Assembly: GCA_034521595.1 (NCBI GenBank)
Contig: JAXHMG010000003.1
Coordinates: forward strand, 288,001 to 352,000
Direction of reading: 5' to 3'
DNA: 64,000 nt
Source of the DNA: Gemmatimonadota bacterium
GTDB lineage: Bacteria > Gemmatimonadota > Gemmatimonadetes > Longimicrobiales > Gaopeijiaceae
Shown here: positions 30,311 through 36,380 of the stretch, piece after piece
Layout: each line of letters opens with the position of its first letter
Position numbering within the stretch: position 1 is the stretch's first letter
Notes under the pieces: generated by a model
The model's database searches: none
Told to the model about the DNA's origin: nothing
The model's input: the letters and a program-made list of their open reading frames with translations, nothing else
Translations under genes and position numbers: made by a program

Positions 30311-30895
30311 ATGGTCAGCGTCCCTTCGACGATGGTTCCCCTCGGAACCCGCGCTCCCGAGCTCACCCTTCCCGAGCCGGCCACGGGCCGGACGGTCTCG
30401 ACCGAGGATCTCCGAGACGCTCCGGCGCTTCTGGTCGTGTTCCTCTCGAACCACTGTCCCTTCGTCAAGCACATCGCCGACGAGCTCGCGTCGTTCGCAC
30501 GCGAGTACGGTGAGCGGGGGCTGGCGATCGTCGGCATCAATGCGAACGACGTGGAGAAATATCCGGACGACAGCCCCGAGAAGATGGCCGAGGAGGTGGC
30601 GTCGCGCGGCTACACCTTCCCGTACCTGTTCGACGAGACCCAGGAAGTCGCCAAGGCGTACGGCGCCGCCTGCACACCGGACTTCTTCCTGTTCGACGGA
30701 GATCGAAAGCTGGCGTACCGCGGGCAGTTCGACGACAGCCGCCCCTCGCTGGAGAAGCCGGTGACGGGTGCGGACCTGCGTGCCGCATGCGATGCCGTGC
30801 TGGCGGGCGAGGCTCCGCCGAAGGACCAGGCCCCGAGCGTGGGGTGCAACATCAAGTGGCGCCCCGGCAACGAGCCCGCTTGGTTCGGAGCGTAG
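30311..30895 (+). CDS. Thioredoxin-fold (AhpC/TSA-like) protein
   Basis: NHCPFV, YGAACTPDFFLFD, SVGCNIKW. Confidence 0.88.
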   Translation: MVSVPSTMVPLGTRAPELTLPEPATGRTVSTEDLRDAPALLVVFLSNHCPFVKHIADELASFAREYGERGLAIVGINANDVEKYPDDSPEKMAEEVASRGYTFPYLFDETQEVAKAYGAACTPDFFLFDGDRKLAYRGQFDDSRPSLEKPVTGADLRAACDAVLAGEAPPKDQAPSVGCNIKWRPGNEPAWFGA

Positions 30896-31290: not shown

Positions 31291-31962
31291 TCAGGCCGTG
31301 CGGTACGCGCTCAGGAGCATGCGGCCGCTGAACGCCAGCGCGATACCGATCCAGACGATGCCCCACACGAGGGTCGGGATCCCGGTGATCTCGGCCAGCA
31401 TCGCGGCGTCGGAGCGGAGCTCCGGCCGGTCGAGGACGTCGCTCTTGATGTCGAGGATCGCGTAGAGGCTGCTCGTGAGGCCGAGGGTGAGCAACACCGC
31501 TCGGTTGATGCCCCCGCTCGCGCGGCGGGCGATCCAGAAGAGGGCCGTGCCGAACGCCAACCCGAACGCGATGCCGAAGCCGCTCCGGACGTACAGGAGC
31601 GTGGCGACGACGATGATTCCGGCGATCACGGCGTTCACCGTGTCGGTTCTGGTGCGGCGGCCACGCGCCGCCGCGAACATGGCGCCGCCCCACGCGAGGC
31701 TGCCGAGGTAGCCGGCGCTCAACACCAGGAAGGCGTTGCCGCCGGGGCAGTAGCACGCGCCGCCCTGGTAGGGATCGAGGTCGATCCGGTGCACGGATCC
31801 GCCCGTGGCGAGCGACGCGCCCGCGTGGCTCAGCTCGTGGAGCAGGACCACGAAGATCTTCAGGGGATAGACGACCGGGGTCTCCCAGAAGAACCACAGG
31901 GCGGTGAAGAACACGCCGAACCCGAAGAGGAAGCGCAGCTTGCGCCACGTACGATTCGCCAT
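31291..31962 (-). CDS. M50B-like membrane metallopeptidase
   Basis: HELSH, LSAGYLG, SDA motifs; multiple TM helices. Confidence 0.85.
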   Translation of the reverse strand: MANRTWRKLRFLFGFGVFFTALWFFWETPVVYPLKIFVVLLHELSHAGASLATGGSVHRIDLDPYQGGACYCPGGNAFLVLSAGYLGSLAWGGAMFAAARGRRTRTDTVNAVIAGIIVVATLLYVRSGFGIAFGLAFGTALFWIARRASGGINRAVLLTLGLTSSLYAILDIKSDVLDRPELRSDAAMLAEITGIPTLVWGIVWIGIALAFSGRMLLSAYRTA

Positions 31963-31972
31963 GAGGTGGAGG

Positions 31973-33010
31973 TCAGGCTCCGCCGTCGGCGATCCGGAGG
32001 TCGTATCGGCGCTCGAAGAGCTCGCCGCGCTCCTCGATGTCGGCGCGCGCGAGGTTCGCGTTCTGCCCGGAGCGGGAGAGCGCGTCCAGCGCCGCCTCGG
32101 CCACTTGGCCCTCGCTGAGCCCGTGCTGGAACCCGAACGTCGCGGTCCACTGATACACCTGGTCCTCCCAGCGCCGCTCCAGCTCGGCCCGCTCCGCTTC
32201 GGGCACCCGGACGTCGCGCCGCTCGGCTTCGGCGAGCGCCGCGGCGCGGCGTGCCTCGGGTTCCGTCACGCCCTGGTCGTCGAGCCAGGCGTCCAGCACC
32301 GCTCGCGGGTCTTCGATCCGGGAGGCGACGGTGCGGACGACCGTGCTCCGCGCCTCCTCGAACGGCACGACCTCGCGGTCTTCGAGGCGGAGGATGTGGT
32401 ACCCGTACTGGGTCTCGGTCACGGGGCTGATCTCGCCGGGCTCGAGCGCGAGCGCCGCTTCCCAGAACTCCGGAACCCACGAGCCTTCCCGCCCGGGCTC
32501 GAGCAATCCCTCACGTCCTTCCGCACCCGGCTCCTCGGAGAGCTCGGCGGCGGTGGCCGCGAAGTCCGCCCCGTCCTGCAGTCGTTCCATGGCCCGCTCC
32601 GCCTTGGCCCTCGCCTCGGCGCGGTGCTCTTCCGAGCGCCACCGCTCACTGGTGAAGAGGATGTGGCGGACCGTGAGCTCCCAGGCCGGATCCGTCATGT
32701 ACCTGGATTCGAGCACGTCGTCGGAGACGTCGTTCTTCTCGAGCGTCAGCTCGGCCGCCAGCGCGTCGAGGCGGCGGTCGTCCATCCACCGCTCGATGAG
32801 CGGCGCACCCAGCTCGTCGGTCGTGGAGTCCGCGACCGCGAGCCCGAACGCCGCGAGGTAGGCGAGCATCTCCCGGCGATCCTCGGAGAGGCCCAGGACC
32901 TGGTCTTCGGTGAACGTGACGCCGTCGACGGCGACGGCGGGGGGCTCCGGGTCGCCACAGGCGGCGGCCGCGACGACGGCGATCAGGATCGTCTTGCGGG
33001 TGATGGACAT
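31973..33010 (-). CDS. Parvulin-type peptidylprolyl isomerase lipoprotein
   Basis: Lipobox AAAC; VRHIL, GEISPVTETQYGYHIL. Confidence 0.85.
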   Translation of the reverse strand: MSITRKTILIAVVAAAACGDPEPPAVAVDGVTFTEDQVLGLSEDRREMLAYLAAFGLAVADSTTDELGAPLIERWMDDRRLDALAAELTLEKNDVSDDVLESRYMTDPAWELTVRHILFTSERWRSEEHRAEARAKAERAMERLQDGADFAATAAELSEEPGAEGREGLLEPGREGSWVPEFWEAALALEPGEISPVTETQYGYHILRLEDREVVPFEEARSTVVRTVASRIEDPRAVLDAWLDDQGVTEPEARRAAALAEAERRDVRVPEAERAELERRWEDQVYQWTATFGFQHGLSEGQVAEAALDALSRSGQNANLARADIEERGELFERRYDLRIADGGA

Positions 33011-33146
33011 GTATCGAAAGTGCACGAAGGCCGCCGGGTCGCCAACCGTGGGTGGCGTCGCCGCCGTGGATATGGGAGGTTGACGGGAACCCGGCTGCGC
33101 GCCGGGGTGTTCCCTCCCTCGTATCGTTTCCGTAGCCCCGGATCCC

Positions 33147-33878
33147 GTGGAAATCTTCGCCCTTCTGCAGATCGAGCCGGCCGGAGGCCTGTCCGAGGCC
33201 CTCTCGTCGAGCCCGCTCCTCGCGCTCGCCGTCCTGTTCGGCGCGGGGATCCTCACGAGCCTGACCCCGTGCGTCTACCCGATGATCCCGATCACGGCGG
33301 CGGTCGTCGCCGGGACGTCGCGTGAGGATCAGTCGAAAGCGCGGACCGTCGGCCTCACGCTGACCTATGCGGTCGGGCTGGCCAGCCTCTACGCGTTGCT
33401 CGGTGCCCTCGCGGGCGTGTCGGGGCAGCTCTTCGGCGCGGTGAGCGCGAGCCCGTGGGCGCGGCTGGCGATCGGCAATCTGCTCATCCTCTTCGCGCTG
33501 GCCATGCTCGACGTGATTCCGGTGCCCGTGCCCCGGAAGCTGATGGAGCGGGCCTCGCGGACCGAAGGCGGGTCGTTCGGAGCCGTGTTCGTGATGGGTG
33601 CGATGTCCGGGGTGGTCGCCGCACCGTGCGGCGCGCCGGCGTTCGCGGTGGTGCTCACCTGGGTGGCGGCCACGCAGGCCGGCCTCATGGGCTTCGTCTA
33701 CCTCTTCGTCTTCTCGTTCGGGATGACGGCGCTGCTCATCGTGGTGGGGATCTTCTCGAGCGCGGTGACGCTGCTGCCGAGCTCCGGCTCCTGGATGATC
33801 TGGGTCAAGCGTGCCGCCGCGTTGATCATGATCGGCATGGCGGAGTATTACTTCGTGCTGGCCGGCTACAACTTCTGA
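33147..33878 (+). CDS. CcdA/DsbD-beta transmembrane electron transporter
   Basis: SLTPCVYPMIP and AAPCGAP redox Cys motifs. Confidence 0.88.
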   Translation: MEIFALLQIEPAGGLSEALSSSPLLALAVLFGAGILTSLTPCVYPMIPITAAVVAGTSREDQSKARTVGLTLTYAVGLASLYALLGALAGVSGQLFGAVSASPWARLAIGNLLILFALAMLDVIPVPVPRKLMERASRTEGGSFGAVFVMGAMSGVVAAPCGAPAFAVVLTWVAATQAGLMGFVYLFVFSFGMTALLIVVGIFSSAVTLLPSSGSWMIWVKRAAALIMIGMAEYYFVLAGYNF

Positions 33879-33919: not shown

Positions 33920-34447
33920 ATGCGCGCAAAGCTCGCCTCCGCGATCGCGGTCTTCACGCTCCTCGGTCTCGGCACGCTCGTGCCGGGCGTCGCCGCCCAG
34001 TCCTCCGGAGAGGGCTCCGTCTCGCTTCCGATCGGGAGCGAGGCTCCGTCCGTCACGCTCGAGGACCTCGACGGCAACGAAGTCGACCTGCTCGAGCTCG
34101 TCGACGGCCAACCCGCGCTCATCGAGTTCTGGGCGAGCTGGTGTGAGCAGTGTGAAGCGCTGCAGCCGGAGATCGATCGCGTCCAGTCGATGTACGGGGA
34201 CGAGGTCCGCGTCGTCGCGGTGGCCGTCGCCGTGGCGCAGAACGTGCGCCGCGTCCGTCGGCACGTGGAGGGGGCCGGACACGACTACCCCTTCCTGTAC
34301 GACGCGCAGGGGACGGCGGTACGCGCCTACAAGGCACCGACGACCTCGGTCGTGGTGATGCTCGACGCCGACGGGCGGGTCGCCTACACCGGCGTGGGGC
34401 CCGACCAGGACCTCGTCGGCGCCGTGGAGCGACTGCTCGGGAGCTGA
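33920..34447 (+). CDS. Exported TlpA/ResA-family thioredoxin
   Basis: Signal peptide; FWASWCEQC. Confidence 0.88.
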   Translation: MRAKLASAIAVFTLLGLGTLVPGVAAQSSGEGSVSLPIGSEAPSVTLEDLDGNEVDLLELVDGQPALIEFWASWCEQCEALQPEIDRVQSMYGDEVRVVAVAVAVAQNVRRVRRHVEGAGHDYPFLYDAQGTAVRAYKAPTTSVVVMLDADGRVAYTGVGPDQDLVGAVERLLGS

Positions 34448-34448
34448 C

Positions 34449-35093
34449 TCAGGGCTCGACCGGCTCCGGCTCGGGCGTGACGCGGTCGACGATCTCGCCG
34501 AGCTCCTCGTAGGCGGTCGGGTCGACCTGGCGGAACTCGGGGATGACGCCGGCCACGTTTCCGTCCGGATCCACGACCACCACCGTGCGCATGTCGATGT
34601 TCGCGGTTCCGTCCTCGTCCCGGAGCGGCCCGCCGTAGCGCGCATAGGTGCCCGCGTCGTTGACCCCGTCGCTCGCGAAGATGAACGGAAAGTCGGTCTC
34701 GTGGAGCCAGGCGTGCAGCTCGTCTGCCGGATCCTGGGTGATGCCGAGCACCACGACGTTCCGGCCGTTGTTGAAGAGGCTCGCGTACTGATCACGGTAC
34801 GCCGTCATCTGGACTGTTCAGCCACTTCCCCGAGCGCGGAAGAAGAAGGCGAGCACGACCGTCTTGCCCCGGAAGTCGCTGAGGCTGACCGGCTCGTCGA
34901 GCACGCCGTACCGCGTCGCCGCGCGGAGCTCGAAGTCCGGTGCGGGCTCGCCGACCTCGACGAATTCGGCGCGGGCCTCGGACGCGGCGTCACCGGCCGA
35001 CGGTTCGGCCTCGTCCGCGGCGTCGGAGCCGCAGGCCGCGCCTGCCAACGCGAGGGCGGTCGTGGTGAGCAGCGTCATGGGAAATCGCTTCAT
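34449..35093 (-). CDS. Peroxiredoxin-like lipoprotein, probable selenoprotein (TGA 34818-34820 = Sec), 214 aa
   Basis: ORFs 34818..35093 and 34449..34808 are in one frame: KTVVLAFFFRARGSG-U-TVQMTAYRDQY; lipobox AGAAC; hairpin after TGA. Confidence 0.85.
34783..34802 (-). promoter_or_regulatory. Putative bacterial SECIS hairpin
   Basis: GCGTAC-CGTGATCA-GTACGC starting 15 nt after TGA; identical in the paralog. Confidence 0.7.
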
Positions 35094-35142
35094 GGCTATC
35101 GTCCGATGGGTGAAGGTGTCTGTCGGGAGCGAGGCGCGCTGC

Positions 35143-35739
35143 TCAGCCGTCGCCTTCCTCCGGCTCCGGCGTCACGCGGTCGATGATCTCGGCGAGCTCG
35201 TCGTACGCTGCCGGATCGACCTGGTTGAACTCCGGGATGACGCCGGCGATGCGCTGGTCCGGTCCGACGACGATGACCGCGCGGCTGTCGGCCATGTCGT
35301 TGTCGCGCAACCCACCGCCGAACGCCGCGTAGGTGCGGCCCTGGTTCGCGCCGTCACTGGCGAAGAGGAACGGGAAGTCCGCATCGTACGCCCAGGAGCG
35401 GAGCTCCTCGGGGGAGTCGTTCGAGATCCCCATGAGCACGACGTTCTGACCGTTGTTGAAGAGGCTTGCGTACTGATCACGGTACGCTGTCAGTTGGACT
35501 GTTCAGCCACGCGTTCGTACGCGGAAGAAGAAGGCGAGGACCACGGTCTTGCCCTCGTAGTCGCTCAGACGGACCGGTTCCTCGAGCAGGCCGTAACGGG
35601 TCGCGCCCGGCAGCGCGAAGTCGGGCGCCATCTCGCCGACCTCCAACAATCCGTCGGGCTCGGCCTGCGCTTCGACCCGGTCGGGTGCGCCGAGCGCGAG
35701 CAGCGCCGTGAGCATCCCGAGGGATATCGCTTTTCGCAT
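35143..35739 (-). CDS. Secreted peroxiredoxin-like protein, probable selenoprotein (TGA 35503-35505 = Sec), 198 aa
   Basis: In-frame KTVVLAFFFRVRTRG-U-TVQLTAYRDQY (TxxU); signal peptide; hairpin after TGA. Confidence 0.85.
35468..35487 (-). promoter_or_regulatory. Putative bacterial SECIS hairpin
   Basis: GCGTAC-CGTGATCA-GTACGC starting 15 nt after TGA. Confidence 0.7.
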
Positions 35740-35921
35740 CGGTGACTCGTCTCCGTAAAAGATGAAGTGACTTCGTTCATTATGGGATGTCTCGAAGGGT
35801 CAGGCCATCCCCACGCTGGAAACATTTGGCGATATTCGCGATCATTCGCCATCTTTGGAAGGAAATCCCCCCCGATTCGCCACATATCCTTCGTGCTTCC
35901 GTCTGACGAGGTCTCTCTACC

Positions 35922-36380
35922 TTGCTCTCAACCGAGCCGACGCTGTTGGTCGTAGAGGACGCCAGTGACCACGCGGCGCTCATTCGCGTGGCGGCGCGCC
36001 GTGCGTTTCCGGGGCTCGACGTCCGCGTGGCCGGGGACGGCCGGGAAGGGATCGCCTATCTCGAAGGCACGCCCCCCTTCCAGGACCGACGCTCGCACCC
36101 GTTCCCGGATCTGGTCATCCTCGACCTGATCATGCCCGACATCGACGGATTCGGCGTGCTCGAGCACGTCCGGAGCCGGCAGTGGCGGGACCCGTTTCCC
36201 ATCGTGGTCCTCACGGCCTCGCCGGATCCCGACGCACGCGAGCGCTCGCTCGAGCTCGGCGCCGATCAGTACTATCCGAAGCCCGAAGAGCTCGACGAGC
36301 TCGGTCGCGTGGTCGGCGAGATCGTGAAGACCTGGCTGCGCGACCACGTGGCCATGGGCACGATTCAGCCGGCGCTCTGA
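35922..36380 (+). CDS. Single-domain response regulator
   Basis: LVVED, LVILDLIMP, VVLTAS, YYPKP receiver motifs. Confidence 0.88.
   Translation: MLSTEPTLLVVEDASDHAALIRVAARRAFPGLDVRVAGDGREGIAYLEGTPPFQDRRSHPFPDLVILDLIMPDIDGFGVLEHVRSRQWRDPFPIVVLTASPDPDARERSLELGADQYYPKPEELDELGRVVGEIVKTWLRDHVAMGTIQPAL

Follow-up and report, generated by a model that had tools for sequence, protein, structure and literature searches.

Selenoprotein peroxiredoxins (Prx) with the motif TxxU, in which U is selenocysteine (Sec), account for 253 genes in the Global Ocean Sampling (GOS) survey (PMC2398784 Table 2), and a Prx selenoprotein is present in 78 organisms among the >5200 sequenced organisms surveyed in PMC5029168. 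A 2026 review lists the Sec peroxiredoxins with a 'highly conserved' motif PxxxTxxU (PMC13188914). An exported peroxiredoxin of the BCP/PrxQ type, PprX, is known from Caulobacter crescentus, where TlpA acts as its reductant and ScsB or DsbD supplies the electrons (PMC3322552). Literature searches, judged by titles, returned no description of a Sec peroxiredoxin of Gemmatimonadota, and the main text of PMC5029168 does not contain 'Gemmatimonad'. Here we analyze two adjoining genes, A and B, on the minus strand of a 64,000-nucleotide stretch (the window) of contig JAXHMG010000003.1 from a Gemmatimonadota bacterium of the Longimicrobiales. Genes A and B are almost certainly intact, genuine selenoproteins, because a hairpin stands at a fixed distance from each in-frame TGA, the genome contains selA, selB, selD and a tRNA-Sec, and homologues carry Cys at the same site. 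As a whole, the locus is best explained by intact exported peroxiredoxins of the BCP/PrxQ type with a single Sec (1-Sec), with Sec insertion directed by the hairpin and recycling by a TlpA-like thioredoxin and CcdA, and we regard this explanation as probable.

Read with translation table 11, the minus strand of positions 34449-35739 consists of four open reading frame pieces. Gene A is split by TGA into 35503..35739 (78 aa) and 35143..35439 (98 aa), and gene B into 34818..35093 (91 aa) and 34449..34808 (119 aa). When TGA is translated as U, the four pieces join into two continuous frames. An earlier note, made from the letters of this DNA, had quoted the active-site motifs FFFRVRTRG-U-T (gene A) and FFFRARGSG-U-T (gene B) together with the downstream segments DSRAVIVV and DMRTVVVV, and all four are exact. 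Both TGA sites are covered by DNA contigs of sequencing runs X1 and X2, which represent one sample, possibly the source sample, and no other letter is listed there.

The Pfam domain AhpC-TSA spans the TGA in both genes, covering residues 34-165 of A with 73.2 bits and residues 47-181 of B with 73.3 bits (cut-off 26). In phmmer alignments, U79 of gene A falls on the Cys of the FFPAAFSPVCT-type motif in the solved BCP structures 2cx3, 2ywn and 3hjp. Both U79 and U92 of gene B stand at the motif Cys, the peroxidatic position, where the earlier note had placed the single TGA of each paralogue. The AlphaFold2 (AF2) model, made for gene A alone from the 20-row alignment A1, has a pLDDT of 83.3 and a pTM of 0.78. 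In it, the helix of residues 77-93 has U79 in its first turn. The best Foldseek matches of this model are BCP/PrxQ and AhpE of the single-Cys (1-Cys) type (TM to target 0.8-0.85). The frame is conserved on both sides of the TGA, and the Prx Arg is retained in invariant alignment columns (R153 in A, R169 in B).

Other hallmarks of the family are missing, as the same note had recognized. Phe replaces the conserved Prx Pro in both proteins. At the Prx Thr position A keeps T76 (TxxU), and B has Gly (GxxU), as do all six B orthologues. Gene A encodes no Cys at all and gene B only the lipobox Cys21, so that mature A and B are devoid of the resolving Cys of a two-cysteine (disulfide) cycle. Against NF040737, the NCBIfam equivalog model of PrxU, they score 41 and 46.6 bits, below the cut-off of 270. 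By the -3/-1 rule and the lipobox pattern, which were applied in place of a predictor, the N-termini look like a secretory (Sec-type) signal peptide in A and a lipoprotein signal in B, in line with what had been proposed from the letters. The gene A-type N-terminus, a hydrophobic stretch ending in A-Q, is kept in full-length homologues.

The genome from which genes A and B come (3.49 Mb, 93.25% complete) has the complete selA, selB, selC and selD set, which the earlier note had proposed to look for. The matches are 542 bits for selA, 313.5 bits for selB (above its cut-off) and 375 bits for selD, which has one in-frame TGA of its own (C3:3027242-3028168); the tRNA-Sec scores 68.9 bits and is called by ARAGORN as tRNA-SeC with anticodon tca. 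Sec insertion at the two UGAs is itself inferred. As a separate observation, a candidate for a third exported thioredoxin-fold selenoprotein lies ~2 kb from selD (L205 509-1366, minus strand; G000:C3 ~3030308-3031165). It has a lipoprotein-like N-terminus (LITAC), an AhpC/TSA-like domain and the motif F-F-R-G-H-W-U-P-Y-C of the UxxC type.

The in-frame TGA is conserved among relatives. Among 61 related genomes, 32 genes with strong matches and loci could be aligned, and the codon at the Sec site is TGA in 31 of them and TGC in one (genome G038), which bears out the suggestion that nonsense mutation is an implausible origin. Sampling the phylum evenly, we obtained matches at E<=1e-25 in 331 of 401 genomes. 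Among the 150 matches listed, beyond which there are 203 more, 148 have an in-frame TGA, the two without it being those of G038 and G357. The 61-genome and phylum tallies include the unpublished genomes G037, G056, G116, G212 and G234, and the analysed loci come from none of these. The putatively exported Sec peroxiredoxin clade therefore occurs across Gemmatimonadota.

Downstream of each UGA, inside the coding sequence, there is a hairpin GCGUAC-CGUGAUCA-GUACGC with a stem of 6-7 bp and a loop of 8 nt. The hairpin starts 15 nt and its loop 21 nt after the UGA. In the bacterial Sec insertion sequence (SECIS), the apical loop lies ~16-37 nt after the UGA and has a G near its start, and the hairpin agrees with this in both position and loop (CGUGAUCA). 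The terminal UGA stops of genes A and B are without such a hairpin. Despite spanning seven codons, the hairpin 20-mer is invariant in 31/31 Sec forms; the Cys form (n=1) has three differences from it, two of which are at synonymous third-codon positions. When one genome of each prokaryotic species was scanned for exact copies of the 20-mer, at least 120 loci were recovered; in 120/120 a TGA precedes the 20-mer by exactly 15 nt and belongs to the frame FFxxxRTxGU-T. Both the TGA and the hairpin are present in metagenome-assembled genomes of Gemmatimonas phototrophica (L106) and Gemmatimonas sp. (L139). By the titles listed, 77 of 80 loci belong to Gemmatimonadota lineages (Gemmatimonadales, Longimicrobiales, Gemmatimonas), and the other three to an uncultured bacterium and to metagenome-assembled genomes of Phycisphaerae and Acidobacteria.

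A seventh pair flanking the stem is formed by two third-codon positions. It is of Watson-Crick type in 70 of 99 distinct sequences (CG 28, GC 24, UA 17, AU 1), a count reached in 0 of 5000 shuffles, although this shuffle test is inflated by the kinship of the sequences. Four pair types at synonymous sites are difficult to obtain otherwise than by co-variation. The case for the hairpin rests on its conservation and on this one co-varying pair.

The databases hold this protein mostly in pieces. Of the 120 best matches to A, 18 are full length and 102 are fragments, 111-120 aa long, that begin shortly after the TGA; where the fragments bear a name, it is 'peroxiredoxin' or 'redoxin domain-containing protein', with Gemmatimonadota or Longimicrobiales as the source. 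The search with A and a second search seeded by a Cys form together gave 113 full-length homologues, with the motif visible in 112: PxxxTxxC in 109, PxxxSxxC in one, FxxxTxxC in one (P0003) and FxxxTxxL in one (P0122). In 110 of the 112, Cys stands at the site within P-x3-T/S-x2-C, in keeping with the expectation that homologues would align Cys with the TGA; the expectation breaks in P0122, the one homologue with a non-Cys residue at the site. A single Cys is present in 99/112 full-length homologues. This suggests that the family throughout, whether with Cys or with Sec, is an enzyme that relies on one redox residue and, judged by its N-termini, is exported.

The replacement of Pro goes together with Sec. 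In 162 distinct hairpin-bearing genes, the Pro position is occupied by F in 107, Y in 37, P in 11, I in 4 and by A, V and S in one each, and the Thr position by T in 150, S in 8 and G in 4. We quantified the coupling in 150-residue windows around the site taken from loci L021-L204 and the full-length proteins (287 rows, 274 distinct); each row had to show the motif pattern and be free of stops, and failing rows were dropped uncounted. Residues other than Pro are present in 155 of 165 Sec forms versus 1 of 108 Cys forms, and Gly at the Thr position in 9 of 165 versus 0 of 108. On trees built with FastTree and with IQ-TREE in its quick mode from 139 columns, with the active-site columns excluded, the Sec/Cys and the Pro/non-Pro states each need ~17-18 changes. 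Supported branches provide 9 independent contrasts in the FastTree tree and 8 in the IQ-TREE tree. The Pro state moves with Sec in ~8/9 and ~7/8 of them, respectively, and in the opposite direction in none (sign test, median p 0.008 and 0.016). The number of switches is rough, as it comes from quick trees of 139 columns, but the association of Sec with Pro loss is itself firm.

The B-type paralogue, with its lipoprotein signal and without Pro and Thr, was found in the window's genus only. The B-type active site is visible in 6 of the 7 genomes of this genus (the window, G001, G003, G004, G005 and G006), and G002 has a B-type C-terminal piece only, at a contig end. The six B orthologues share the motif FFFRARG[RS]GU, a linker rich in Ala, Pro, Asp and Glu, and three extra residues inserted ahead of the conserved Arg. 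A Cys follows the N-terminal hydrophobic stretch in 6/6; the strict lipobox pattern is L/V/I-x-x-C, which three of the six show, the others having a relaxed form. In a 71-row tree (63 distinct genes from the loci and 8 Cys proteins, after removal of 5 exact duplicates), the B clade has support of 100/100 and a long stem of 0.4 changes per column, and the A clade support of 100/98 and a short stem of 0.098. The B clade joins at an unresolved fork, and the tree does not decide for a duplication of A within the genus.

The ratio of nonsynonymous to synonymous substitution rates (dN/dS), computed with our own Nei-Gojobori script with the TGA codon excluded, is 0.04-0.26 for B and 0.075-0.31 for A (15 pairs each). 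Gene B, like gene A, is under purifying selection, and B is not decaying. A second copy in another genus (G009) has Gly in place of Thr (FFYRVRGGGU) and an ordinary signal peptide. The spacing of A and B varies within the genus: the two are adjacent in the window and in G004 and ~3.4 kb apart in G003 and G005 (L199 1502-4931, L200 1337-4705), and G003 has ~2.7 kb more between B and the tlpA-like gene.

The features of the locus are collected in Table 1.

Table 1. Positions in the window of the two putative selenoprotein genes, their predicted elements and the neighbouring redox genes
Feature	Position	Strand	Remarks
Gene A, putative exported 1-Sec peroxiredoxin	35143..35739	-	198 residues + TGA stop; AhpC-TSA, AF2, Foldseek
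Gene A, predicted signal peptide, residues 1-24 (MRK, hydrophobic core, VEA|Q)	35668..35739	-	-3/-1 rule
Gene A, putative Sec codon UGA, residue 79 (U79)	35503-35505	-	
Gene A, SECIS-like hairpin GCGUAC-CGUGAUCA-GUACGC, start 15 nt past UGA	35468..35487	-	
Gene B, putative lipoprotein-type 1-Sec peroxiredoxin paralogue (FFFRARGSGU)	34449..35093	-	214 residues + TGA stop
Gene B, predicted lipoprotein signal with lipobox Cys21 (ALALAGAA-C-GSD), then Ala/Asp/Glu/Pro-rich linker	35031..35093	-	
Gene B, putative Sec codon UGA, residue 92 (U92)	34818-34820	-	
Gene B, SECIS-like hairpin, 20 nt identical to that of gene A, start 15 nt past UGA	34783..34802	-	
TlpA/ResA-like exported thioredoxin (WCEQC), proposed reductant	33920..34447	+	convergent with gene B
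CcdA (DsbD_TM), proposed membrane electron carrier to the thioredoxin	33147..33878	+	

Gene B faces a tlpA-like gene, and the stop codons of the two (TGA on the plus and TGA on the minus strand) are 1 nt apart (34445-34451). A scan of positions 34300-36000 for consensus promoters and terminators found no site. As no terminator-like site was found near 34445-34451, the convergent transcripts would overlap. The TlpA-like protein matches Pfam Redoxin with 69 bits, and its best NCBIfam match is ResA with 60.8 bits, below the cut-off of 170. CcdA, encoded upstream of it, matches DsbD_TM with 151.9 bits. Among NCBIfam models, CcdA scores highest against TsoB, a selenoprotein model, in its DsbD part (164.5 bits versus a cut-off of 805), which is a similarity of the domain only. 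We compared 58 loci together with 1.5 kb of sequence on each flank. In 36 of them the Prx gene is followed immediately on its 3' side by a TlpA-like gene, which invariably has the opposite orientation, and ccdA is present there in 33. A response regulator on the other flank is seen in 6/58, all of the window's genus. In the two-copy genus the tlpA-like/ccdA pair stays beside B.

The conserved convergent pair suggests a periplasmic recycling as in Caulobacter PprX. We propose a 1-Sec cycle because neither A nor B has a resolving Cys, and recycling by the TlpA-like protein and CcdA because the gene arrangement mirrors the route from ScsB (or DsbD) through TlpA to PprX (PMC3322552). In this scheme SelB and tRNA-Sec would insert Sec at the UGA, directed by the hairpin 15 nt downstream, and the terminal UGA would terminate translation. 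Protein A would be exported by its signal peptide as a soluble periplasmic protein, and protein B would be exported and anchored to lipid via Cys21 on a flexible acidic linker. The selenolate would attack the peroxide and become a selenenic acid; the first Cys of the TlpA-like WCEQC would attack the selenenic acid to give a selenosulfide; the second Cys of the thioredoxin would resolve it; and CcdA would re-reduce the thioredoxin with cytoplasmic electrons. Export and peroxidase activity are predictions made from sequence, and so is the reductant that we name. Within them, peroxidase function is likely for A and has slightly better than even chances for B, and we lean a little towards the TlpA-like/CcdA pair as the reductant of both.

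Several observations weigh against parts of this explanation. The only RNA runs, X20 and X21, contain a fraction of 0.06 of the sampled words, and their contigs are the sequence of relatives, with 80-90% likeness; they are uninformative on the transcription of genes A and B, and nothing about habitat follows from so small a share of words. The stability of the two hairpins is not distinguishable from that of shuffled sequences (z = -1.34 and -0.19) and is therefore not used as evidence for the hairpin. An Rfam scan of 34400-35800 found no SECIS family, its sole match being a small RNA at chance level (E 6.6). At the Sec site, P0122 has Leu, and P0003 combines Cys with the Sec-type Phe at the Pro position, each one of the 112 motif-bearing full-length homologues; both may be real variants or errors of gene calling at a TGA. 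The peroxidase activity of B is uncertain because Pro and Thr, 2 of the 4 residues that the PprX paper calls absolutely conserved (PMC3322552), are gone. The Prx gene and the tlpA-like/ccdA pair converge and are not co-transcribed; the pair is not beside Prx in 22/58 loci, including one whole genus and the Cys form of G038, and the genome has two further DsbD_TM genes.

If the TGAs were nonsense mutations, the four reading frames would be remnants of two dead genes, or the truncated pieces alone would be made. The interruption of both genes under table 11 and the ~114-aa C-terminal pieces that prevail in the databases (102 of the best 120 matches) fit this idea, to which we nonetheless give virtually no credence: the in-frame TGA is kept in 31/32 relatives, in 148/150 among the phylum matches listed and in 120/120 of the at least 120 hairpin loci, dN/dS is far below 1, the frame never shifts between the halves, and no Met follows right after the TGA of gene A, which leaves the C-terminal half without an obvious start of its own. 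It is also very improbable that the UGA is decoded as something other than Sec, whether by near-cognate read-through as Trp or Cys or by Cys on tRNA-Sec under selenium scarcity. Many homologues function with Cys at the site, as such decoding would allow, but the selABCD set is complete, a position-fixed hairpin with a conserved loop stands beside every UGA and is decayed in the Cys form, and TGA is the normal stop of A, of B and of the neighbouring thioredoxin gene.

Genuine selenoproteins could also serve in another role, with one or both proteins, above all B, acting as selenol thiol-disulfide oxidoreductases, relays or envelope sensors that scavenge no peroxide. The loss of Pro and Thr in B, the stem of 0.4 changes per column in B against 0.098 in A, as expected after a change of function, the lack of detectable peroxidase activity in PrxL, an exported Prx-like protein (PMC3322552), and the candidate UxxC Prx-like lipoprotein selenoprotein in the same genome all speak for such a role. 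We consider it unlikely overall: Sec occupies precisely the peroxidatic position, Thr and Arg are retained in A, the Arg is invariant together with the remainder of the Prx core, and every one of the closest solved structures is a peroxidase. The tlpA-like/ccdA pair may serve a different pathway, for example the maturation of cytochrome c or of copper centres, its adjacency being an inherited gene order and the Prx being recycled by another periplasmic thiol; this is a serious possibility, somewhat short of an even chance. Its convergent orientation without an operon, its absence beside Prx in 22 of the 58 loci and the below-cut-off ResA match of the TlpA-like protein (60.8 bits, cut-off 170) would fit, and TlpA, ResA and CcdA have such roles elsewhere (PMC3322552). 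On the other side, the adjacency persists down to ~44-50% TlpA identity in three family-level groups while the other flank changes, the pair remains beside B in the two-copy genus, and the two other DsbD_TM genes could serve cytochrome maturation. ResB, the System II cytochrome c maturation protein, was not found with PF05140 in the 93.25% complete genome, which is no proof of its absence.

Further observations concern the window and its occurrence. Many soil, sediment and lake metagenomes (runs X3-X21) contain 6-14% of the sampled 31-mers of the stretch; this share may come from the nucleotide-invariant UGA-hairpin segment that is common to the phylum. At 30311-30895 on the plus strand, the window encodes another thioredoxin-fold protein (AhpC-TSA/Redoxin) without a signal peptide and with the single-Cys motif N-H-C-P-F. 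Its surroundings also encode an M50B peptidase (31291-31962) and a peptidyl-prolyl isomerase (31973-33256).

For annotation, these results mean that databases mostly represent a protein found in the majority of the sampled Gemmatimonadota genomes by a truncated fragment labelled 'redoxin/peroxiredoxin'. Counts of envelope oxidative-stress capacity and of selenium dependence are therefore too low for this phylum, which is common in soil and water. For enzymology, >160 Sec and >100 Cys forms of one exported 1-Cys/1-Sec peroxiredoxin give a handle on the need for Pro and Thr and on the benefit of selenium. For physiology, they point to a testable periplasmic electron route from CcdA through the TlpA-like thioredoxin to a selenoenzyme; in the literature searched, such a CcdA/TlpA-type route to a peroxiredoxin was found shown only for the Cys enzyme PprX. 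A bolder interpretation, which we offer tentatively and hold to be rather doubtful, is that the Prx active site is rewired when its peroxidatic residue is Sec. Pro would nearly always give way to an aromatic residue with Sec and nearly always be kept or restored with Cys, Thr would be lost only on a Sec background, and B would be a membrane-tethered selenoperoxidase without Pro and Thr; together with the tlpA-like/ccdA pair, this would amount to a periplasmic defence against peroxides that is based on selenium and supplied with electrons by a DsbD-family relay. If so, the family would be a natural experiment on the roles of Pro and Thr in Prx catalysis.

The existence of peroxiredoxin TxxU selenoproteins, which the earlier note had cited as known, is indeed old knowledge, as they form a long-catalogued family (PMC2398784, PMC13188914). 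New here are the tandem pair, a paralogue B without Pro and Thr that is nevertheless under purifying selection, the quantified and repeated coupling of Sec with Pro loss, and the nucleotide-level evidence for the hairpin. With the PrxU/Prx TxxU family, whose founding member is PrxU of Eubacterium acidaminophilum, gene A shares the AhpC-TSA domain, the predicted Sec in place of the peroxidatic Cys and the T-x-x-U motif (PMC2398784, PMC13188914). In that family, too, a bacterial SECIS lies just downstream, and Cys homologues are far commoner overall (PMC2398784, PMC13188914). Unlike PrxU, A and B fall below the PrxU equivalog cut-off, are putatively exported and have a single redox residue without a second Cys. 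The A/B clade also departs from the PxxxTxxU motif of the review: Pro is replaced in 155/165 Sec forms, and B lacks Thr as well.

The best sequence and fold matches are the 1-Cys BCP and AhpE enzymes (Aeropyrum pernix BCP, 2cx3; Sulfolobus Bcp1/Bcp4, 3drn/3hjp; Mycobacterium tuberculosis AhpE, 1xvw). Their active-site helix begins at the peroxidatic position, as it does at the Sec position in the model predicted for A (helix 77-93). These enzymes are cytoplasmic, Cys-based and keep the Pro-Thr-Cys-Arg set, unlike A and B. Compared by description, the locus resembles that of PprX in combining a BCP/PrxQ-type peroxiredoxin of the envelope, here a predicted one, with TlpA-type and DsbD-family genes next door (PMC3322552). 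PprX, however, is Cys-based and forms a disulfide between two distant cysteines, whereas A and B would work with a single Sec and have no resolving residue (PMC3322552). The membrane carrier differs as well: it is ScsB in Caulobacter (PMC3322552), and would be a plain CcdA, known from its gene, in the bacterium described here.

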